This document shows, in pieces, positions 34,167-46,422 of a stretch of 64,000 nucleotides of DNA. Position 1 is the first letter of the stretch. Every line of letters begins with the position of its first letter. Source of the stretch: Escherichia phage A73; sequence record OP778609. One strand, given 5' to 3'. The notes under the pieces are model-generated. The model had not been told where the DNA came from. It worked only from the letters and a program-made list of their open reading frames with translations, and did no database searches. A program made the position numbers and the translations under genes.

Positions 34167-34200
34167 AGAAAAGGCGCTCAAATGAGCGCCTTTATTTTTA
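34165..34200. terminator. Bidirectional terminator at strand switch
   Basis: aaagaaaaGGCGCTCAaaTGAGCGCCtttattttta: 8-bp stem flanked by A-run and T-run, between convergent gene blocks. Confidence 0.75.
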
Positions 34201-34214
34201 TCTAAATTTTACGA

Positions 34215-35390
34215 TCAAAACGGAATATCGTCGTCAAAATCCATATCATCTACAGACATATTTACATGTCCTTCAATATCAGGGGTAGGTGAATCTTCTG
34301 CTGACGGAGTTAACTGCGGTTCCGGCTCAGGTTTCTTTTCCTCTTGCTTAGGAGTTGAAGCACCGTTACGGATCTTATCTTCCAATTGACAGATGAATCG
34401 GAAATTCTCTTCAGTCTTAGCAATAAAGGTTTCGATATTGTCACGACCCCAACGGGCAGAAAGAATGCCACACTGGCCTAAACGAGCACCGAAAGAGTAA
34501 TCATCCATAGATTTAAACTCTTCACGCAGTTTTGCTTTGATCGAATCCATCGCTGCAAGAACTTGTTCTACGATCACACCCTGATTTGCAATAGTTTCAT
34601 CAGGGAACATTGCATCGGTAATAGATAGTGCATTACCTAAACGAATAGGTAGATCATCTTTACCTTTACCTGAACGTGATCCTGTTCCAGTACTTGCACC
34701 TTTTGGACCGTAAGCTTTAAAGCCTGTAACCGTACCATCATCTGAACGAACACCTGCAATACGACCACCTTCTGTAATCTGACCCGTCTGTTCATCAGTG
34801 AGGTTTACAGTAACTTCTGTGCCGTCTTCCAGCTTAACAACTACCTTATTGCCTTCGATAGATGTGATATCACCATAAATCTTCTTAGCTGCACCACCAG
34901 ACGGCTTTTGCTGCTGTTGGGAACCACTTGATTGCTGCTGTTGCTGACGAGGCTCACGAGCACCGGATGCGTCAGTAATCTTGATACGTGCTTTCTTACC
35001 TTCTGTAGAAGAACCTTGACTACCATCTTGTTTGGTATAGGTCTTGATAACAACAGGTAAACGAATTTTCATACCCTCTTTAAGATCGGTGTAACCACCT
35101 TCAGGATTTTTAATCTGGAACTGATTCTCATACTTCAGATTTTTAACTTCACCCTCACCAAAAGAAATCCATGCTTGATCTTCACCTTCTTTAAGAAGAA
35201 CCGCATAGCGGTGGGTATTGTTAATGCTTTTCTGCTGACCAGTATTCTTGTCTTTGAAGGTAGTCACTCGTGGGCTACCATCTTCATTAATACGTTTGAT
35301 CATGATACGTTCAATCGTACCTGCTGCAATGTTTACTGTGGTATCGGAAACAGCATCGTATACAGCATTGATAACTTTAACTTCAGACAT
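34215..35390 (-). CDS. SSB-like protein with C-terminal acidic DDDIPF tail
   Basis: 391 aa; ends ...SVDDMDFDDDIPF, matching the bacterial SSB C-terminal tail; Gln-rich linker; N-terminal OB fold not verified. Confidence 0.5.
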   Translation of the reverse strand: MSEVKVINAVYDAVSDTTVNIAAGTIERIMIKRINEDGSPRVTTFKDKNTGQQKSINNTHRYAVLLKEGEDQAWISFGEGEVKNLKYENQFQIKNPEGGYTDLKEGMKIRLPVVIKTYTKQDGSQGSSTEGKKARIKITDASGAREPRQQQQQSSGSQQQQKPSGGAAKKIYGDITSIEGNKVVVKLEDGTEVTVNLTDEQTGQITEGGRIAGVRSDDGTVTGFKAYGPKGASTGTGSRSGKGKDDLPIRLGNALSITDAMFPDETIANQGVIVEQVLAAMDSIKAKLREEFKSMDDYSFGARLGQCGILSARWGRDNIETFIAKTEENFRFICQLEDKIRNGASTPKQEEKKPEPEPQLTPSAEDSPTPDIEGHVNMSVDDMDFDDDIPF

Positions 35391-37578: not shown

Positions 37579-38187
37579 TCAATCACAACTGCTTGAAGAA
37601 CTGCTACTGCTACTATCCGAAGAATAACTATCGTAAGATGATGAGCTATCATACGAACTTGATCGACTTGGAGAACAGTAAGAACTTGAACTACTTGTAC
37701 GATCTTCACTGGATGACATTACGGCAGCATACGTTGCCACACCACCTAAAGCTGCCACCTGAGGATCAACCTGGCTAGTCCCGTACCCGTTTGGGGAGTC
37801 GCTCATCTTACGTGGTGCTGCCCGACGTGCCTGATCAATATACTGTCGCTTTGCCTTCGGCGGTAATTTCTTACCTTGAGCATAGGACGGTAATTCAACG
37901 CCCTTCAGTTGTTCATCCAAGGACTTAGGCGGTGTAGCCTGAGCTTTTGGGCGTTCAATTGAGATATCTACAACCTTCATTGTTTTATCTTTAAGGTTTA
38001 CCCCTACCAACGCTTCATTTTCCTTTAGTGGTTCTTCTAAAGATCGTGTTTCAACTGGACTGAATTTAACGCTTGCAGTTTCTTGACGTTGTTCAGCTTG
38101 CTTTGCGATATACTTATCGATCGCCGCAGTTTCTACTTCCAGAGGAATAAATAATGATTTTACCCAAGCAACAAACTTCTTGATCAT
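37579..38187 (-). CDS. Hypothetical protein with poly-Ser C-terminal tail
   Basis: 202 aa; last ~50 residues almost exclusively Ser/Tyr/Asp. Confidence 0.45.
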   Translation of the reverse strand: MIKKFVAWVKSLFIPLEVETAAIDKYIAKQAEQRQETASVKFSPVETRSLEEPLKENEALVGVNLKDKTMKVVDISIERPKAQATPPKSLDEQLKGVELPSYAQGKKLPPKAKRQYIDQARRAAPRKMSDSPNGYGTSQVDPQVAALGGVATYAAVMSSSEDRTSSSSSYCSPSRSSSYDSSSSYDSYSSDSSSSSSSSSCD

Positions 38188-38408
38188 ACTCTTTCTCCTT
38201 TTTCATCAATAACGATTAATGGCTCAATAACTAAAAGGCGCTGCTTCATAAGACTTTTTATAGTCTCATCGATATCAGATAGAAGAATATCTTTTTGACT
38301 TTCTATCCAATTACGTGCTGCCTTTTCTGAAACAAATGCAATACCTTCTTGACCAATATCCCATTCACAGAATACTTTATACACCATCATCTTCTCCCTT
38401 GTCAACAT
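38184..38408 (-). CDS. Hypothetical small protein
   Basis: 74-aa ORF, start overlaps upstream gene. Confidence 0.35.
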   Translation of the reverse strand: MLTREKMMVYKVFCEWDIGQEGIAFVSEKAARNWIESQKDILLSDIDETIKSLMKQRLLVIEPLIVIDEKGERV

Positions 38409-38694
38409 TTTTCGGATTAAGTTTCTTTTCTGCGGCCTTCAAAATAATATCCAGCTTTTCAATTTCCTTATGTAAAGGCTCAGATAATAACTTCTCACCA
38501 AAAAGCCAGAATTTCTTCATGCCTTTCTTAACGCACTTTCCCATAAAGCCCGCGAGGTCTTCTAGTCGCCAAGCAATAAAACTAAATATTGCAGCTAAAA
38601 GGTGAATCAAGGCCAGTAGTAAACGATGCGGGTTTAGTACAGCAAGGCACAGGATCATAAAGATTATTTTAGTAAAACCCCAAATAATTTTCAT
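38377..38694 (-). CDS. Small membrane protein
   Basis: 105 aa; two N-terminal hydrophobic helices, charged C-terminus. Confidence 0.4.
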   Translation of the reverse strand: MKIIWGFTKIIFMILCLAVLNPHRLLLALIHLLAAIFSFIAWRLEDLAGFMGKCVKKGMKKFWLFGEKLLSEPLHKEIEKLDIILKAAEKKLNPKNVDKGEDDGV

Positions 38695-39077
38695 TCGTAA
38701 TTGATCTCCACTTTAACAATTTTACCAGTTTTATCATTGAATACTTCAATGTCATAGTATTCAACAACGCCTTCATCATCAAAAGAACTTTTTTGTTTGC
38801 AAGGTGATACCCAAAAACCGTGGATTACTGCCTCCTCCAGTCCGTCGGTATGTGATACAACACTCAATGTTGGGTAAGGGACCATAATAGGTTTTACCTC
38901 ACCACAACCACACGTACAGCAAAATACTTCATCTTCTTCCAGTTGGTACAGTCGCTTTTCTGGAACAAAGGTCAGATGCGCCAAAGGATATTTAGAGACG
39001 ATGGCATTAATATAAGGTTTTCCTGCCAAGCTGTCAATAAATTCATTAAACTCTTTTCTATTTTTTGATAAGCTCAT
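38691..39077 (-). CDS. Hypothetical Cys-cluster protein
   Basis: 128 aa; CCTCGCG cluster. Confidence 0.4.
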   Translation of the reverse strand: MSLSKNRKEFNEFIDSLAGKPYINAIVSKYPLAHLTFVPEKRLYQLEEDEVFCCTCGCGEVKPIMVPYPTLSVVSHTDGLEEAVIHGFWVSPCKQKSSFDDEGVVEYYDIEVFNDKTGKIVKVEINYE

Positions 39078-39310
39078 CGAGTACCTCCAAAAATATTTAA
39101 AGCTTTAGAATAATCAATGTGACCTGGAACAGTGTGGGCCTCTTGTACAAGGCATTGCCGACAAATACGTGACACAACTGTTGTCTTGATCTCTTCTGTA
39201 TCGTAGAAGCGAGACATTACCTTTGTAACTTGATTGCATTGAGTAATAACAAAATCGTGTTTACAACTTGGTTTGTTTTCTTCAGTTTCTTTCTTTTTAA
39301 AAGGCCACAT
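39074..39310 (-). CDS. Hypothetical small protein, possible zinc ribbon
   Basis: 78 aa; C-x8-C ... CxxC arrangement. Confidence 0.35.
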   Translation of the reverse strand: MWPFKKKETEENKPSCKHDFVITQCNQVTKVMSRFYDTEEIKTTVVSRICRQCLVQEAHTVPGHIDYSKALNIFGGTR

Positions 39311-39318
39311 GGTGACTC

Positions 39319-39501
39319 CTATTCTTCAACTATTTCGTATTCATCTTTCAAGAGCATAAATTGATAGCCCTTGCCCTTATTCGCAATAATAGTACCAGAC
39401 GCGCTCTCTTTTGTCACGAAAAGAATTGAATCTTTTTGGACACCGTAATACTTAAGTTGCTCAAGCAGTTTGGTCTTTGATTCTAAGATTTTGACTTTCA
39501 T
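39319..39501 (-). CDS. Hypothetical small protein
   Basis: 60-aa ORF. Confidence 0.3.
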   Translation of the reverse strand: MKVKILESKTKLLEQLKYYGVQKDSILFVTKESASGTIIANKGKGYQFMLLKDEYEIVEE

Positions 39502-39596
39502 TAGATATCAATTACTACGATTTCAAGCATTGAGTTTTCAACAGCTTCCTTATGTTTTGCTGAGTAAAATTTCATTTAATTATCCTCTCTGCCAGT

Positions 39597-39863
39597 TTAT
39601 AATTTTTCTTTGCCTAAAGTAAGACTAATTTCGAAAGTTTTTGTGATAACTTTATCGTCTTTGTCGAAGAAATCAAATTGGACATAACTCTCGGTCGAAC
39701 TGACAACCAGACCTACAGAGACAGTCCCTTCTGGTACGAGAGCCTTATATTCTTCTTTTAGCACAACGTCGTAAAAATACAACGCTCCACAATAAACTTC
39801 ATCCCAACCATCAAAAGATTCGATGAAAGCTTTTTCAATACCAACTAAAGTATTTTCTGACAT
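39597..39863 (-). CDS. Hypothetical small acidic protein
   Basis: 88-aa ORF. Confidence 0.35.
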   Translation of the reverse strand: MSENTLVGIEKAFIESFDGWDEVYCGALYFYDVVLKEEYKALVPEGTVSVGLVVSSTESYVQFDFFDKDDKVITKTFEISLTLGKEKL

Positions 39864-39886
39864 TATATTATCCTCTTCGTTTCAAG

Positions 39887-40153
39887 TTAGATATAGTCTA
39901 CACCAGCTTGTTCCAACAAGTCAAGCCTTAATTTAAGTTCTTTTTCACGATAGTCGGAAACAAGTTTATCCTTTTTCTTTTCTTCTTCGTCGAACTGTTC
40001 GAGTGGAAGAATACGAATAATGTGCTCTGCCTTCATGTAGGACGTTGATCCGATAAGCTGAACATTACCATTTGGTAACAATCGACCCTTGATCACCCGA
40101 TAACGAGGGAACAAGTCATATTTAACAATCGCGGTAACTGCTAGATTACTCAT
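39887..40153 (-). CDS. Hypothetical small protein
   Basis: 88-aa ORF. Confidence 0.35.
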   Translation of the reverse strand: MSNLAVTAIVKYDLFPRYRVIKGRLLPNGNVQLIGSTSYMKAEHIIRILPLEQFDEEEKKKDKLVSDYREKELKLRLDLLEQAGVDYI

Positions 40154-40472
40154 GTGTATTCTCCATATCGCGAATTCGATCTTCTACCCAACCACGACGA
40201 TAAATGTTGAGGTAAGATTTACCTTTTGAACCATGATGGGCATATTCGTCAAAATCAAAATCAAAAGGCGTCTCGGTGTTAAGACCCGCATCAAAGAATT
40301 GATTCTTCATTTCGAATTGCACTTTCATGTCTGGATCATTTTTACCTAAAAATGAAGACAAATTAAAACAAAGGCCAGCACCTCGGTAAAAAGCCCCATC
40401 TTTTGGTGCACCGATATCTAACCATTTTTTATATTCTCGGTAGAAATTCAGAAGTTGCGGACTGCTTTTCAT
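40146..40472 (-). CDS. Hypothetical protein, paralog family B (copy 1)
   Basis: Start set at MKSSPQLL behind GAGGAG RBS (ORF track 40523 extends through an inverted repeat); shares FY..Y..WLD.GAP...GLC..L...DAGL...PFD with ORF 49858-50154. Confidence 0.45.
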   Translation of the reverse strand: MKSSPQLLNFYREYKKWLDIGAPKDGAFYRGAGLCFNLSSFLGKNDPDMKVQFEMKNQFFDAGLNTETPFDFDFDEYAHHGSKGKSYLNIYRRGWVEDRIRDMENTHE

Positions 40473-40491
40473 TTTGTTCTCCTCATTTGTT

Positions 40492-40523
40492 TTGATAGGA
40501 CTACTATAACATAGTCCTATCAA
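40492..40523 (-). promoter_or_regulatory. Perfect 11-bp inverted repeat upstream of family-B gene
   Basis: TTGATAGGACT-N10-AGTCCTATCAA, 20-51 nt upstream of the start codon; candidate operator or 5'-UTR hairpin. Confidence 0.4.
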
Positions 40524-40605
40524 CTTGTATACTATTTAATTAAAGATTTTATGAATGCTTGGTAGGACCCTTCTTTAAATACTCATCTGGATAATAAAAA
40601 TCATC

Positions 40606-40983
40606 CTATACTCCAAATGTGGATTTGATTTCAGCAATAACCTCATGCACATTGTTTTCGTTTACTTCAAATGTGTAGGACGTTGGTTTAAGGAACGTCT
40701 GAGGTGAAACATTAACAAAGAATTCAAATTCATCATTAAAAATTTCAAAGTATTTTCCAGGTGTTGATTCTTGGCTTTTGAAAACAGTACCATCTTCCAT
40801 AGTAACAGAAGAAACAGATTTTTCACCAAGGGTGTATGTTTTTAGCTCGTCAACAACGAAACTGGGGCCGTGGCGACGGAGTATTTCAACCATAGTTCGG
40901 TTAGCTCCACAAATACCAGTACGATTAATAAATAACTCTTCACACCGAGGATTGAGAATATAAGTTTTTCCTACTTGCATCAT
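40606..40983 (-). CDS. Acidic small protein, paralog family A (copy 3 in transcript order)
   Basis: 125 aa; shares M.[VI]GKTY.LN...HGP.F[IV]V...YFE...EF.FF...SNA.E[VT][IL].[LE]IK[SA]TF with the two adjacent ORFs. Confidence 0.5.
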   Translation of the reverse strand: MMQVGKTYILNPRCEELFINRTGICGANRTMVEILRRHGPSFVVDELKTYTLGEKSVSSVTMEDGTVFKSQESTPGKYFEIFNDEFEFFVNVSPQTFLKPTSYTFEVNENNVHEVIAEIKSTFGV

Positions 40984-40993
40984 TACAATCTCC

Positions 40994-41353
40994 TTATGCT
41001 AAGTTAAATGTGGATTTGATCAGGTCAATAACCTCTTGTGCGTTGCTCTCCGACACAGATACCTGAATAATTTTAAGGTCGCTGACCTCTTCAAAGTATT
41101 CGAACTCAGATTCACGAAGTTCAAAGTACATTGCCCCACAGCCCACACTGAATGAATCACACCCTACAGCACCATCTTCTGTTGTGATGTTATTAACATA
41201 CTCATCACCTTCGATCATGCTCATGTTGTTAACAATAAATCGTGGCCCGTGCTCATCCAGAAAAGAAACAATCTCGTGATTGTAACTTGGGTCAGCCTGA
41301 ATAAATTCTTCTACGAGTTTTGGATTAAGTTTATAAGTTTTTCCGACTTCCAT
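40994..41353 (-). CDS. Acidic small protein, paralog family A (copy 2)
   Basis: 119 aa; same motif set; own RBS. Confidence 0.5.
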   Translation of the reverse strand: MEVGKTYKLNPKLVEEFIQADPSYNHEIVSFLDEHGPRFIVNNMSMIEGDEYVNNITTEDGAVGCDSFSVGCGAMYFELRESEFEYFEEVSDLKIIQVSVSESNAQEVIDLIKSTFNLA

Positions 41354-41364
41354 CTTTGTTCTCC

Positions 41365-41739
41365 TTACGCCAGGTTAAAGGTAGCTTTAATCAAATCTAA
41401 AGTTTCTTGTGCATTACTACGAGAGACGGCAACCTGAATAATAACAGGGTCTTCATCTTCCCCGACTTCTTTGAAGAAGGGAAATTCACTCTCTGCAAGT
41501 TCAAAGTATACACACTTGTTACCTTCGCAGTCGTGAAAAACGTCACTACCTAAAGTACCATCTTCAAATATGACATTGTTAACATATGCAACATTATCAT
41601 AGAAGTGGGTGGTGTTGACAACAAATTTAGGACCGTGCTTATAAATAAGGTCAACCAATTCTTGATTGTAGCTAGGGTCCATATTGATAAAAGCTTTTTC
41701 TAAGTCTTTATTAAGAATGTAAGTTTTTCCGATTTCCAT
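41365..41739 (-). CDS. Acidic small protein, paralog family A (copy 1)
   Basis: Start at MEIGKTY behind GAGGAGAG RBS (ORF track 41826 runs through promoter and terminator). Confidence 0.5.
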   Translation of the reverse strand: MEIGKTYILNKDLEKAFINMDPSYNQELVDLIYKHGPKFVVNTTHFYDNVAYVNNVIFEDGTLGSDVFHDCEGNKCVYFELAESEFPFFKEVGEDEDPVIIQVAVSRSNAQETLDLIKATFNLA

Positions 41740-41768
41740 CTTTGCTCTCCTCTTCAGTTGATGGATAC

Positions 41769-41798
41769 ATCTTAGTTGATATAGACATGTCTTGTCAA
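41769..41798 (-). promoter_or_regulatory. Sigma70-like promoter with palindromic spacer element
   Basis: On - strand TTGACA-N18-TAAGAT; spacer contains perfect 10-bp palindrome AGACATGTCT (41783-41792); ~30 nt upstream of the copy-1 start. Confidence 0.5.
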
Positions 41799-41819
41799 TA
41801 ACTTTTTGCACATAAAAGA

Positions 41820-41842
41820 AAACCACCCTTCGGGGTGGTTTA
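41820..41842 (-). terminator. Rho-independent terminator after DNA polymerase exon 2
   Basis: On - strand AAACCACCCcgaaGGGTGGTTTtcttttatg: 9-bp stem plus T-run. Confidence 0.7.
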
Positions 41843-41847
41843 AATTA

Positions 41848-42198
41848 CTAGTGGCACGCCCCCCAGTTCATCCCTGTGAGGTATTCACCTGTTATGTGGA
41901 CAGGAGATTTCATCATTCGTGCTGCTTGCTCTACACAACGAACAACCATCTCTCCAACTGGACAATACATGATCGTGTAGATTCCATTCTCATCAGGATC
42001 ACACTTAAACTTCCCTTCTTTCACACAATGACCATCCAAGATCATTTTCTTAGCCAAGCAAGCTTCTACAAATTTCTTCGCGTCAGCTTCGTTGTCAAAG
42101 GTCCAGGTCTTCTTGAACTTGTGCGGTACTTCAAGCTGGTATTCATCCAAAAGTTTAACGAGGTCGTTACTCTCGCCCACATCATTACATGTTGCCAT
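41848..42198 (-). CDS. DNA polymerase (family A, T7-type), 3' exon
   Basis: 116-aa ORF ending ...GMNWGACH, like the family-A C-terminus; contains LLDEYQLEV, a candidate motif C. Frame is closed 2 codons upstream of the ATG; true exon start is probably near 42180. Confidence 0.65.
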   Translation of the reverse strand: MATCNDVGESNDLVKLLDEYQLEVPHKFKKTWTFDNEADAKKFVEACLAKKMILDGHCVKEGKFKCDPDENGIYTIMYCPVGEMVVRCVEQAARMMKSPVHITGEYLTGMNWGACH

Positions 42199-42954
42199 AC
42201 GTTTTCACATATGGATCGGACTATATCACCATCCTTTTCAGGATGCTCCCCATTTCGACGGCACTTGCTCGCCTACGCCTCTCGGCTAGTCTCTGAACGT
42301 TAGGACCATGTGTAGTCACAAGAGATGTGTGTCCAGTTTTTACGGATTTTTATGGACCTTACCACGTTGTAAGGATAACCCATATCCCGAATCTGTGCAC
42401 TTCCATAACCTTGCCCCAGGAAGTTGCAAATCTCTCTAACCTCTTCTTCGGTAACTATACTTCTGGCGTTATCAACCCCTGTTGCTGAACGACATTTATC
42501 AGCAAAGGTTTTCTTGATATTTCCACCACGAGTTGTCCATTGGAGGTTTGAATAGTGGTTATTCCTTTTGTCAGGCCACTTATGATCAACCTCCGGCAAA
42601 CCTTCAGGGTTTGGTACAAAACACTCTGCCACCAAAACGTGAACAGCCTTTGTAGTCGTCCTTTTGTTGAGATACAGACTTACAATAAGATACCCACGTC
42701 CATTATCAACTGCCGCCATTGGTTTCCCTCGACGACCTATAATGGTCCCGTCTTCATAAACCTTGTAACCGAAATAATCTTTATATTCCACATGATCCTC
42801 TTCGCTGCTGATTAACATAGTCTCATACTAACTCACACTTGAATTAATATCAACCTTAGTCTTCCAGCAATTAAAGGAGTTTTCGATGTGAGTTACCTCA
42901 CAAAGCCACAATGTTACTTATGGTAATAGATAATACGTCTAACGCCTTCATCAT
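42180..42954 (-). mobile_element. Group I intron with HNH homing endonuclease ORF (boundaries approximate)
   Basis: On the - strand RNA, in order: P-like AAUUGCUGGAAG (42861-42872), Q-like AAUCAGCAGC (42804-42813), HNH ORF, R-like GUUCAGAGACUAG (42286-42298), S-like GAUAUAGUCC (42218-42227). P/Q and R/S cores are complementary. Confidence 0.7.
42300..42818 (-). CDS. HNH homing endonuclease (intron-encoded)
   Basis: 172 aa; NUMOD4-like N-terminus (YFGYKVYEDGTIIGRRGK...GYLIVSL) and HNH_3-like core (KAVHVLVAECF...VDHKWPDKRNNHYSNLQWTTRGGN). Confidence 0.8.
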   Translation of the reverse strand: MLISSEEDHVEYKDYFGYKVYEDGTIIGRRGKPMAAVDNGRGYLIVSLYLNKRTTTKAVHVLVAECFVPNPEGLPEVDHKWPDKRNNHYSNLQWTTRGGNIKKTFADKCRSATGVDNARSIVTEEEVREICNFLGQGYGSAQIRDMGYPYNVVRSIKIRKNWTHISCDYTWS

Positions 42955-45250
42955 ACCAACCTTTCTTGACCAACTGCCAGTGCAGGAGGATACCCACCAA
43001 GTCAAACAGTGCAGCACCACCATTCTGCTGATAAGCATTAAGCAATGAGTGTTTGGAACGAGTGTAGATCTTACGTCCATCAAGACCGTAGATGAATCGC
43101 TTACCGTTAGCTTCCCAAAACTTCTCTAATGCTTCTTTACGACCTTTCAAGCCGATGTTGCTATCCCAGAATGCGTCGATTACTGCCTGGGCCTTCTCAA
43201 GAGTGATCCCCAGCATTGATGCAATCTTCGCTGCCTGTGCCCCGTACATAATTCCGTATGTCACACCTTTACCTTCACCACGAGAAACCTTCTTCCCTGC
43301 CGCTTTGGTATACGCTTCTGCGTTTCGGGAGTGAGCATCTCCAGATTCCATGATACGAAGATAAGCACCGCCATCGAAATCATAAGCGCCCCATGCTGCG
43401 ATCATACCTTCTAGGTTTGAACCGTCGATACCTACCTGATATTTACCCTCAGAGGCTCTGAATAGTTCACGCATCTCTTTACCGAGAAGAACTTTCTCAT
43501 CCGGCTTAGGTACGTTTGCTACGATCGTATGCTTACGACGACCTGTGTTAGTTATTCCACTATAACGGGCCGGAAGTTTACCGTCAACTCGTAGACGTGG
43601 ATGGTTAAGCCATCCGGTATCAACCTTCTCTTCTTTCAGCGGGTCAAGAACAGATCGTCGGTTACGTAAAGACAGCCATTTAACAATCTGTTTAGCCATT
43701 TCACCATCTACTCGCTCAAGGTTAGGGCAAAGACCCTGTTGATCCTTAAGTTGTGGAGATGTAGGTAATGCACGAGCTTTCTTACGGAAAAACTTGAACA
43801 TCTTTTCTTTATCTGACCACTGCTTAGGTGTGATCGCCAAGCTTTTCAGAATCAGATCACGATACTCCGTCTGATCCAAATCTTCAATGTATTGACGAAC
43901 AATCAGATCAACTTCACTATCGGGACGTTGTTTCTTGAACTGATCTTTAGTTGCATCCTTTGTACGCCAAATTGTTGGGACCCATCCTGCATCACGGATC
44001 AGGAACTTCTTAACGTCGTCCTGGTTACCAATACGCATCGGAATCATAATGTCCGGCATCTTTTGTTCTTTGATATCCATCAAAGCACGAGCCATATCTT
44101 CCGGCGGCAAAGGAACAAGCCCTTGCTGCTTAACGTTTTGTGCACGGATAAAATCACCCATTTTGGATTCGTCCTCTACACCGTGTTCAACACAATACTT
44201 GATCGCGGCAGCAGTAAGAGATCCGTCAGCCTTAAACGGCTTACTTGGTGCACCTTTAAATTCCAAGGCTTCCCAATTGATATTATAACCTAACTTCTCT
44301 AACCATTTCCAACCTGTACCGGAAAGAGATCCATCACCCTTGAAAGGTTTGGATGGGAATGTCGGTTGTGCTGATTTCGACATCTCTTTCTTCGGCAACT
44401 TAGGTTCAACCTCTAACTCAATGTCAGTCATCATCTTATCGATACGATCACGAAGCTTGAGTGCTTTTTCTTCATCAAATGAAACACCCTGAATTTCTTG
44501 CTCAATCATCAGGTAGTCAGTCAACATACCTCGACGCAGGGCATTCTTCCAGTTGATCATTTTATACTTCTTCTGATCTTTGTCTGTTTCATCCTTAAAC
44601 ATGAAGCGTTTATCATCCGGCATGGATTCACAGGAGATCTCTTTCATCAGAGCATCCCACACCATTTCGTTGATAATTACGTCTTCAATAATACGATCGC
44701 AATACTTCCAAAGTGGAAGGCCACGCCAATCTTCAATCGCCACTTTCTGGTTAGCTACTCGCATACCCCAAGCTTCAAGCCCGTGTGGCCCTACAGGCTT
44801 CATTTTACCTGTGACGGGGTTCTTTACCATCTCAGGACAACCGCGAGGCAGAGGGCGATCTGGATACAATGTACGGGACATTGAAAGTGTATCGAAGATG
44901 GTTACTTGTTTACCATTGATCGTCCCCATGCAACCAGGGTCTGCAAACATATCGTAAGTTGTTCCTAGCATCTTCTTAAACAACTGGAGGTCATAGCCGA
45001 AGATGTTGTGGATAGCAACTGCTTTAGGCTCGGTAACGAACCATTCGTTTAATTCTTCAAGGGTGCGGATCTTGAAGTTTTTACCTTTAGATTGGATAAA
45101 TTTAACAGCTTGATCGTAACCTTCTCGCTGTGGATCAAGAAAGATGTTCCAGTTATCTTTTTTGTACTCTTTAAACAAGATGCAGTGGATTAGATCAACT
45201 TCTGTCAACAGACCATTAGCTTCCGCATCTCCAATAAATAAGCCTTTCAT
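42914..45250 (-). CDS. DNA polymerase (family A, T7-type), 5' exon with 3'-5' exonuclease domain
   Basis: 778 aa; Exo I-like FIGDAEANGL, HGLEAWG segment, motif A-like QVGIDGSNLEGMIAAW, motif B-like RGEGKGVTYGIMYGAQAAK, GRKIY...NGGAALFDL; stops just before the expected motif C. Confidence 0.85.
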   Translation of the reverse strand: MKGLFIGDAEANGLLTEVDLIHCILFKEYKKDNWNIFLDPQREGYDQAVKFIQSKGKNFKIRTLEELNEWFVTEPKAVAIHNIFGYDLQLFKKMLGTTYDMFADPGCMGTINGKQVTIFDTLSMSRTLYPDRPLPRGCPEMVKNPVTGKMKPVGPHGLEAWGMRVANQKVAIEDWRGLPLWKYCDRIIEDVIINEMVWDALMKEISCESMPDDKRFMFKDETDKDQKKYKMINWKNALRRGMLTDYLMIEQEIQGVSFDEEKALKLRDRIDKMMTDIELEVEPKLPKKEMSKSAQPTFPSKPFKGDGSLSGTGWKWLEKLGYNINWEALEFKGAPSKPFKADGSLTAAAIKYCVEHGVEDESKMGDFIRAQNVKQQGLVPLPPEDMARALMDIKEQKMPDIMIPMRIGNQDDVKKFLIRDAGWVPTIWRTKDATKDQFKKQRPDSEVDLIVRQYIEDLDQTEYRDLILKSLAITPKQWSDKEKMFKFFRKKARALPTSPQLKDQQGLCPNLERVDGEMAKQIVKWLSLRNRRSVLDPLKEEKVDTGWLNHPRLRVDGKLPARYSGITNTGRRKHTIVANVPKPDEKVLLGKEMRELFRASEGKYQVGIDGSNLEGMIAAWGAYDFDGGAYLRIMESGDAHSRNAEAYTKAAGKKVSRGEGKGVTYGIMYGAQAAKIASMLGITLEKAQAVIDAFWDSNIGLKGRKEALEKFWEANGKRFIYGLDGRKIYTRSKHSLLNAYQQNGGAALFDLVGILLHWQLVKKGWYDEGVRRIIYYHK

Positions 45251-45416
45251 TTTTTCTCCTTCTTTTAAACTCCAACTAGACTAAAACAAAGCCTAGCCGG
45301 AGGTATGACCCTTCGGCTAGGTTATCAAAAGTGTCGGTATCCTTCATCAACAAAATAAAGTATTACCAAGATGGCAAACACGACACCCAAGAATATTAAT
45401 CCTAGTGAAGTTGGCA

Positions 45417-45650
45417 TCAGTCTTCTATTACCTCAAATTCATCATTAAAAGCTACGATAGTTTCACCGTAGCCCATGTTTAATCGGGCAGTTGTAGGTTT
45501 GCCATTCCTAGATAGATAGTACACCCTCGCTTCGTAAATGTCACCAACTTTTACACCGTAAGCCTGTAGGTCTTTGTTATTGATATCTTTATTTTCAGCA
45601 TTGATTATTCGAACACTGCTGATCTCTGAGTATACAGAATTATCTTTCAT
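45417..45650 (-). CDS. Hypothetical small protein
   Basis: Start set at MKDNSVYSE (45650), adjacent to the upstream stop; ORF track extends to 45692. Confidence 0.35.
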   Translation of the reverse strand: MKDNSVYSEISSVRIINAENKDINNKDLQAYGVKVGDIYEARVYYLSRNGKPTTARLNMGYGETIVAFNDEFEVIED

Positions 45651-45940
45651 CAGTATTTTTCCTCTGGACGGAAAACTCCACGGCAAGCCCACATACTTGC
45701 TTCTTTGAGGCGATCTTTAGCCTTAGATAAGCAATCAGATGCAAAAAGCACGGAATCTAGATCCCCTTCGGGAATCGAAGAGTCATTAGCCAGTCGATTA
45801 TATTCCTCAATAATCTCGTCTTCTAATGCTTTTAAAATAAGACCTAAACGAATTTCAGCATCTTTAATGGCATTCACCTTACCGATTTTTTCATCGGTGT
45901 GTGGTTTGTAGCCCTTAATGTCATCAATAGCCATTACCAA
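45650..45940 (-). CDS. Hypothetical protein
   Basis: 96-aa ORF. Confidence 0.4.
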   Translation of the reverse strand: MVMAIDDIKGYKPHTDEKIGKVNAIKDAEIRLGLILKALEDEIIEEYNRLANDSSIPEGDLDSVLFASDCLSKAKDRLKEASMWACRGVFRPEEKY

Positions 45941-46422
45941 TCCTCTTCTGTTTGTTCATACTCGGAAGGGGTGATGAAGTAATTCTGCCCCCGCTTGCAC
46001 TGGTTGAAAGTCCCAACATACCAAGTACCGATATCCATGTTGATGAAAGTTTCTTCTTGAACAAAGATCAGATCAGTAAGATTATTGTCTGATCGTTGGG
46101 TCGCTAACAAAATATGCTCAAAATCTGCTAATGTTATGTTGTAACAGAAACCATCTTCGTCCTCCATAACTGCAACAACAGAGCTACGCCCTTGGGTGAA
46201 TTGACGAAACTGTAAACGTAAATGACGATGTTCATGTTCATTCGTCTTCACCTTTTTCCGATTTTCGAAATATTCTTCGGAATAATTTGGATGCTTTAAT
46301 TTCAGCTTTTCGATCTCTTCGGTAGAAAGAGCATCCTTATCCCAACCAGTAAACCATTTACCGTTATCATTAAATACCGCAGGGTATTTACGCTTACTCA
46401 AATCTTTAAACATTTGAATCAT
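45934..46422 (-). CDS. Hypothetical protein
   Basis: 162-aa ORF. Confidence 0.4.
   Translation of the reverse strand: MIQMFKDLSKRKYPAVFNDNGKWFTGWDKDALSTEEIEKLKLKHPNYSEEYFENRKKVKTNEHEHRHLRLQFRQFTQGRSSVVAVMEDEDGFCYNITLADFEHILLATQRSDNNLTDLIFVQEETFINMDIGTWYVGTFNQCKRGQNYFITPSEYEQTEEDW

Follow-up and report, generated by a model that had tools for sequence, protein, structure and literature searches.

Three adjacent minus-strand genes in a 64,000-nucleotide stretch of DNA from Escherichia phage A73 (sequence record OP778609; the whole stretch is called the window below) are almost certainly paralogues of the Frd.2 protein of bacteriophage T4, that is, members of the Pfam family PF03197 (Bacteriophage FRD2 protein), of PHROG 622 and of the GoF/MotB.1/Frd.2 group. 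The window is 100% identical to the record of Escherichia phage W70 (OP778610.1; Vequintavirinae, genus Septuagintavirus; 137 kb), with a window coordinate being the W70 record coordinate minus 1, and the genes are therefore called by their W70 names or, for short, c3 (W70_87), c2 (W70_88) and c1 (W70_89). The triplet lies within a long run of minus-strand genes, directly downstream of the gene for a family-A DNA polymerase (polA). It represents a known family without a solved function in a new genomic setting, not a new kind of gene or system. For comparison, four relatives of W70 were used, namely A5-4, A7_1, UPEC06 and LTH01, which together with W70 make up the five-phage set referred to below.

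The family assignment is based on several concordant searches. Against PF03197, the three copies score 73.1, 73.0 and 67.9 bits (the last for c3), far over the gathering cut-off of 29, and cover profile positions 2-95/96; the corresponding E-values are 3.2e-20 for c1, 3.3e-20 for c2 and 1.3e-18 for c3. The PHROG profile phrog_622, in which T4 frd.2 (T4p241) is listed as well, is matched with E-values of 2.5e-23, 1.2e-20 and 2.8e-22 (c3) over positions 3-131/132. A direct BLASTP comparison of c2 with T4 Frd.2 gives an E-value of 6e-20 and 35% identity in a collinear alignment over residues 1-116. Since these alignments are full-length and collinear, a match due to mere composition is unlikely. 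Moreover, seven residues (Y7, N25, F39, E85, F89, N109, and F121) do not vary among 30 members of the family, the three copies among them. The earlier note on this DNA, made from the sequence without database searches, had recognized no known family and had proposed profile searches; when run, these returned a known one, PF03197/PHROG 622, to which T4 Frd.2 belongs.

The family is widespread among phages. A tblastn search with c2 found 546 matching places in 506 phage records, with W70 accounting for three of the places. The records sampled across the tblastn ranking from outside the W70 group nearly all represent genomes 160-175 kb long, and the two phages whose taxonomy was checked, T4 and CJ20, belong to Straboviridae. 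An exhaustive search of 1.84 billion representative proteins with a profile of the three copies yielded 39 matches at E <= 0.001, of which about 31 are FRD2 proteins of like length and two belong to the GoF cluster (E from 6e-5 to 1e-4). Several long "homologues" (P0017, P0036 and others; 1,700-6,000 amino acids, with several matched stretches each) were rejected as compositional false positives because those scanned (P0017, P0036, P0042) carry cadherin or immunoglobulin-like repeat domains. Other searches were less productive: a word-index search with a single copy returned only the four near-identical orthologues, a search with the three-sequence locus only three IMG/VR loci, the copies had no match in NCBIfam, and a sequence profile search of the PDB gave nothing below E 0.9. 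Within the 64-kb window, no further FRD2 copy was found at E < 0.9.

The genes themselves are closely packed (Table 1). Each gene is preceded by an AGGAG-type ribosome-binding site (GAGGAG, 7 nt 5′ of the ATG, in the case of c3), the spacers within the triplet measure only 10-11 nt, and the predicted proteins have a mass of 13-14 kDa each with net charges of -13 (c3), -16 (c2), and -5 (c1). The copies c3 and c2 share 56% identity, c3 and c1 38%, and 35 columns of the alignment are invariant; even the most distant pair (36% identity) is matched by BLASTP at E 5e-20, far beyond chance, so the tandem triplication proposed in the earlier note stands, as does its description of the products as small acidic proteins (isoelectric points, pI, of 4.1-5.0, all three negatively charged). 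Its three adjacent reading frames were found as well, with the sizes given there (125, 119, and 125 residues) being one codon too large for c3. The motifs it listed as common to the copies hold approximately: EF.FF reads EFEYF in c2, and SNA reads NNV in c1. In GenBank, W70_87 starts with a GTG at 41826 (153 amino acids) and overlaps the tail of the preceding terminator and the promoter. This start is probably mis-called, and the ATG at 41739 is to be preferred, since together with its GAGGAG site it fits the c3 orthologues, which are annotated as proteins of 123-124 amino acids. Three plus-strand antisense reading frames (40778-40963, 41249-41437, and 41407-41553) were rejected as genes, given that the substitutions follow the pattern expected of the minus-strand frames instead. 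Mass spectrometry of W70 virions detected 28 proteins (PMC11370258), and the products of W70_87 to W70_89 are not among them.

Table 1. Position of the FRD2-family genes and of the surrounding sequence elements (window coordinates).
Feature	Position	Strand	Description
c1, FRD2-family gene (W70_89)	40606-40983	-	125 amino acids, pI 5.03; most divergent copy
c2, FRD2-family gene (W70_88)	40994-41353	-	119 amino acids, pI 4.14; sister paralogue of c3
c3, FRD2-family gene (W70_87)	41365-41739	-	124 amino acids, pI 4.36
Sigma-70-type promoter-like site	41769-41798	-	TTGACA-N18-TAAGAT; 10/12 matches; 21 nt after the terminator
Perfect 10-bp palindrome	41783-41792		AGACATGTCT; in the promoter spacer; once in the window
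Intrinsic terminator ending the DNA polymerase unit	41820-41841	-	AAACCACCCCGAAGGGTGGTTT then TCTTTTAT; 9-bp stem, 5 GC pairs, T-run
Conserved module 5′ of W70_90	40492-40531	-	TATACA-N17-TATAGT overlapping the inverted repeat TTGATAGGACTA-N8-TAGTCCTATCAA

The earlier note took the copies for old duplications kept under selection, and the comparison of the five phages confirms this. All three copies are present in the same order in every member of the set. The ratio of nonsynonymous to synonymous substitution rates (dN/dS, by the Nei-Gojobori method) between orthologues is 0.11-0.31 for c3, 0.06-0.31 for c2, and 0.04-0.08 for c1; the range for c1 comes from the W70/UPEC06 and W70/A7_1 comparisons and covers the four phages with the W70-type allele, the LTH01 allele being different. 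Between the paralogues, the synonymous distance dS is saturated (1.5-2.2). Saturation between paralogues combined with low ratios between orthologues indicates ancient duplications under purifying selection. There is hardly any chance, then, that the genes are decaying duplicates or mis-called reading frames devoid of function. It could be argued in favor of such a view that T4 frd.2 is dispensable for plating (PMC12152347), but the reading frames of all three copies are intact in the five phages, each has a strong ribosome-binding site, the core residues of the family are conserved, and dN/dS values of 0.04-0.31 contradict decay.

As to the origin of the triplet, neighbor-joining trees unite c2 and c3 in one clade (bootstrap 0.99), while c1 clusters, with weak support, with c1 of LTH01 and with the Frd.2 allele of the T4-like phage T4_ev151; also with weak support, the "frd.2b" cluster of SP18, a Shigella phage with a genome of T4-like size, joins the wider W70 clade. 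FRD2 was not found in the syntenic region of the other Vequintavirinae examined, AV124 and CR9. The triplet is AT-rich, with a GC content of 37.6% vs. 42.2% in the window and 44.2% in polA, and with only 28% GC at the third codon positions of c1. The tree grouping, the absence from AV124 and CR9 and the AT-richness together suggest that the triplet was acquired from T4-like phages and duplicated locally afterwards. Two proteins are mosaics. The Frd.2 of T4_ev151 (P0008) combines the C-terminal module of T4 Frd.2 (L006, 2144-2530), at 100% identity, with an N-terminal domain that shares only 34% identity with the T4 protein, and in LTH01, c1 has been replaced by a mosaic allele (L004, 1733-2122), in which the N-terminal domain shares 55% identity with W70 c1 and the C-terminal module 83% with T4 Frd.2. 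Judged from these sequences, the mosaics imply that FRD2 genes have recombined across the acidic linker between the two modules and have been exchanged between T4-like and rV5-like coliphages.

The surroundings of the triplet vary too. Among these phages, which are >90% identical, its neighborhood is a hot spot of insertions and deletions: A5-4 and A7_1 have three additional small genes (59, 78, and 141 amino acids) between the terminator-promoter module and the triplet (L002, 3123-4074; L005, 3954-4905), and in A5-4, a gene for 80 amino acids follows c1. The 59-amino-acid gene of A5-4/A7_1 was considered as a free-standing FRD2 C-terminal module (hidden Markov model search, E 0.043), but the hhalign probability of 2.8% led to its rejection.

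The structure prediction suggested by the earlier note was carried out for c3. The AlphaFold2 model, built from an alignment of 24 sequences, has a mean per-residue confidence (pLDDT) of 88 and a predicted template modelling score (pTM) of 0.68. It comprises β-strands at residues 6-9, 38-47, 50-58, 63-65, and 89-92, with a two-helix insert at 11-35, followed by an acidic linker of low confidence (approximately 93-100) and a C-terminal helix (107-120). Each copy is predicted to consist of an N-terminal SH3-like β-barrel with a two-helix insert and a C-terminal module of a strand plus a helix, the two being joined by a short acidic linker that varies in length. A Foldseek search of viral models with the c3 model found FRD2 proteins (E 1e-12), T4 MotB.1 (P39415; E 1.6e-4), and GoF of phage VR7 (E 1.8e-4), and the N-terminal bent antiparallel β-sheet of the GoF/MotB.1 kind is present in the predicted structure of c3. 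The matches to MotB.1 and GoF independently reproduce the grouping of these proteins by Kim et al. 2025 (PMC12152347), where GoF and MotB.1, as well as Frd.2, are described as early proteins of an "LSm-like fold" family. Among cellular barrels, the c3 model has weak matches to CarD (score 5.6), FeoA (5.5), domain I of EF-P (5.4), the C-terminal domain of UvrD bound to the RNA polymerase (RNAP) lobe (5.3), Mfd (5.2), and CdnL (5.2). None of the 60 best structural matches is an Hfq or Sm protein, Foldseek against the PDB gave nothing significant, and no copy matches the Pfam family CarD_TRCF RID at E <= 1. As modelled, therefore, the fold is a generic SH3/Tudor-like barrel, with Hfq and Sm proteins missing from the top 60 and the PDB comparison not significant, and the "LSm-like" label has no specific support here.

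The region upstream of c3 contains a terminator and a promoter-like site (Table 1). The terminator is the sole minus-strand terminator-like site in 38000-46000; its hairpin is kept in UPEC06 and LTH01, with changes in the loop only, and a homologous hairpin stands before the longer operon of A5-4 and A7_1. From the promoter-like site, transcription would be expected to start near 41762, i.e., about 22 nt 5′ of the c3 ATG. A promoter at this place is plausible on sequence grounds because W70, UPEC06, and LTH01 agree in every position of the two hexamers, whereas 5 of the 18 spacer positions vary. Thus, of the terminator and TTGACA-N18-TAAGAT promoter described in the earlier note, both sites were found and the hexamers are conserved; an enrichment over shuffled sequences is not seen (numbers below). 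The same note had assigned the triplet a promoter of its own, with a palindromic element in the spacer; neither a promoter of its own nor a regulatory role of the palindrome is supported. In A5-4 and A7_1, a module of the same type (TTGACA-N16-TGgTATGAT after the equivalent terminator) lies before the three additional genes, and there is no terminator after the triplet; since the module precedes further genes in these phages, it seems to be the promoter of an operon rather than one reserved for the triplet. Neither UPEC06 (AGACATATCC) nor LTH01 (GGACATACCC) has retained the palindrome AGACATGTCT, the equivalent promoter of A5-4/A7_1 lacks it as well, and there are 44 perfect 10-bp palindromes in the window, fewer than the 70 +/- 10 of shuffled sequences. 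The palindrome was therefore rejected as an operator, being unconserved in all four relatives and of a kind common in the window; it is probably coincidental, as it lies in the variable spacer, has been lost in the sister promoters and is one of 44.

What the proteins do can be proposed only tentatively: it is possible, though well short of probable, that they are made early and, as adaptors or inhibitors that bind other proteins, act on the gene-expression machinery of the host. If the family identity and the mode of action are taken together, the chance of being right is judged slightly better than even. According to this proposal, host RNAP would transcribe the triplet early from the sigma-70-type promoter, and the products, as small protein-binding adaptors or inhibitors, would retune transcription and mRNA fate in favor of the phage. 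The three copies with their exchangeable N- and C-terminal modules might supply different binding specificities, and action as enzymes or as direct nucleic-acid binders would be improbable. The proposal draws on the acidity of the whole family, the barrel of a protein-interaction type, the modular C-terminus and the host-type promoter, whose hexamers are conserved; in particular, the pI of 4.1-5.3 across the family (median 4.5) favors protein binding over direct binding to RNA or DNA.

The T4 proteins of the group provide some background for this view. GoF and MotB.1, like Frd.2, are small and non-essential, and of GoF and MotB.1, a phenotype is limited to a GoF mutant, D25Y, in which the mRNA of gene 41 is stabilized post-transcriptionally (PMC12152347). 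In a transcriptome-wide CRISPRi-ART knock-down screen of T4 with dCas13d, a single gene of unknown function, frd.2, received the score "Fit" (PMC11879866). Several points weigh against the proposed role. The effect of the frd.2 knock-down is small (log2 fold change 0.83, p 0.027, four guides; PMC11879866), a T4 frd.2 amber mutant plates normally, and the wild-type GoF and MotB.1 are inactive in a reporter assay (PMC12152347). The early timing of the triplet derives solely from the match to a promoter consensus, and sigma-70-like sites are not enriched in the region (23 vs. 18.2 +/- 4.1 in shuffles). Finally, redundancy among the three copies, instead of specialization, is a possibility.

A role as RNA chaperones or RNA binders of the LSm/Hfq type, to which the "LSm-like" label points, altering the stability or translation of phage or host RNAs, would be in line with the predicted bent antiparallel sheet of the N-terminal domain and with a weak PHROG match of c3 to goF, annotated as an "mRNA metabolism modulator" (E 0.1). 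It is nevertheless improbable in view of the strong acidity of the copies (net charge from -5 to -16) and of the lack of Sm and Hfq proteins among the top structural matches. In addition, the wild-type GoF and MotB.1 do not act in the reporter, the active GoF mutant has lost an acidic residue, and AlphaFold3 gave no confident homo-oligomer for GoF or MotB.1 (Kim et al., PMC12152347).

Alternatively, the triplet might be an anti-defence array, in which each copy neutralizes a different host immunity protein or variant and the copies have diversified in an arms race. Small, acidic, non-structural proteins encoded behind a host-type promoter would suit such a function. So would the accessory-looking distribution of the genes, which are missing from the syntenic regions of AV124 and CR9, their indel-rich neighborhood among close relatives, the range of FRD2 copy number from 1 to 3, the replacement of c1 in LTH01 and the shuffling of the N- and C-terminal modules. 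Against this, about 500 mostly T4-like genomes contain Frd.2, usually as one copy at a fixed locus, and this breadth is more like conserved takeover than strain-specific counter-defence. When T4 frd.2 is knocked down in a laboratory host, some fitness is lost, dN/dS values are low, without a whole-gene sign of positive selection, and no known anti-defence or DNA-mimic protein (Ocr, ArdA, or Arn type) occurs among the structural matches, no library of anti-defence proteins having been searched. On balance, an anti-defence array appears unlikely.

The genomic position raises yet another possibility, namely that these proteins are accessory factors of replication or nucleotide metabolism, e.g., binders of the polymerase, of the single-stranded DNA-binding protein or of the dNTP-synthetase complex: the W70 triplet follows polA, and the T4-like copies lie between gene 32 and frd/td. 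FRD2, however, is all that the two contexts have in common, and none of the FRD3, DUF5417 (frd.1), gp32, and DHFR domains was detected in the nine W70 neighbors scanned. A terminator separates polA from the triplet, and the linkage to replication is weak because clusters of small early genes often sit among replication genes. There is accordingly little to recommend this explanation, and its chances are put as low as those of RNA binding.

A bolder reading specifies the target. The FRD2/GoF/MotB.1 barrel could be a phage version of the Tudor-like module of CarD, Mfd, and UvrD, docking on the β lobe of RNAP or on another central host machine, with the swappable C-terminal modules as effectors or specificity determinants; the triplet would then be a three-member toolkit of modular binders traded between the unrelated T4-like and rV5-like coliphages, and its target might just as well be defence proteins. 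This is a long shot, somewhat less likely still than the anti-defence array. If true, such docking on a host machine or a defence protein would solve the function of T4 Frd.2 and GoF.

Downstream of the triplet, no terminator was found after c1, and the next convincing one on the minus strand is 6.4 kb further on, at 34170-34193. This is a strong bidirectional terminator (a stem of 10 bp with 6 GC pairs and a T-run on either strand) located just past the last annotated minus-strand gene examined, W70_105 (34215-35390), and it probably ends the cluster of small genes that starts with the triplet. The whole minus-strand cluster of about 7 kb encodes proteins without an assigned function. A Pfam scan of its six small genes next to the triplet, W70_90 to W70_95 (38691-40472, minus strand), gave nothing at E <= 0.01 except for one sub-threshold match. 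The gap of 132 nt between c1 and W70_90 contains the conserved module listed in Table 1, of which about 60 nt are almost invariant in the five phages, whatever gene precedes; the RNA fold of the gap has a z-score of -2.5 with a 13-bp hairpin, and the inverted repeat comprises 12 bp. This element is not an intrinsic terminator because it lacks a T-run; it might serve as a promoter or an operator, or as a hairpin for RNA processing.

Upstream of the triplet, polA is split into a part coding for 778 amino acids (42914-45250) and one coding for 116 amino acids (41848-42198), both on the minus strand. Between them lies a reading frame for an HNH endonuclease (42300-42818; Pfam HNH_3, E 3e-5), and the Rfam group I intron model RF00028 matches in its whole length at 42196-42929 (39.7 bits, E 1.1e-7; under the gathering score of 50). 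In UPEC06 and A7_1, the polymerase gene is uninterrupted. By its sequence, the insertion looks like a mobile group I intron with a homing endonuclease.

Across roughly 500 T4-like phages with sequenced genomes, Frd.2 is conserved, and its function has been an open question for decades. In the W70 group, the FRD2 family has crossed into an unrelated lineage of myoviruses and has been kept there as three paralogues under selection. Together with the independently recombining N- and C-terminal modules, these paralogues provide natural variants for studies of Frd.2 and GoF function, and they could be used in the search for partners, in domain swaps, and in cross-complementation of T4 frd.2.

T4 Frd.2 and the W70 copies are alike in that they align collinearly over their full length with 31-35% identity, have about 120-130 amino acids, are acidic (pI 4.40 for the T4 protein), and show the same layout of barrel, acidic linker and C-terminal helix with the same invariant residues; the linker is far shorter in W70 c2 and c3 than in T4 Frd.2. 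The genomic setting differs. T4, of Straboviridae, has one copy between gene 32 and frd, whereas W70 has three copies after polA; the T4-type context, beside frd.3 and frd.1, is typical of the family rather than family-defining. In general, T4-like phages carry one or two FRD2 copies, typically in the layout gp32-FRD2-FRD3-FRD2-frd.1...frd. The frd.2/frd.2b pairs of SP18, CJ20, and metagenomic contigs resemble the W70 locus in being multi-copy with diverged paralogues; while most T4-like loci examined have the order FRD2-FRD3-FRD2 and one IMG/VR contig (L010) has a tandem pair, the W70 group has three adjacent copies without FRD3, the largest FRD2 array among the loci examined. With T4 GoF and MotB.1, the W70 copies have in common the predicted N-terminal barrel; the similarity in sequence is marginal and the C-terminal domains are unlike. 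The resemblance to the cellular barrels (the N-terminal domains of CarD/CdnL, the Mfd RID, the C-terminal domains of UvrD/PcrA, FeoA, and domain I of EF-P) is on the level of the fold only, with 10-17% identity, and none of these proteins has the helical hairpin insert or the C-terminal module of FRD2.

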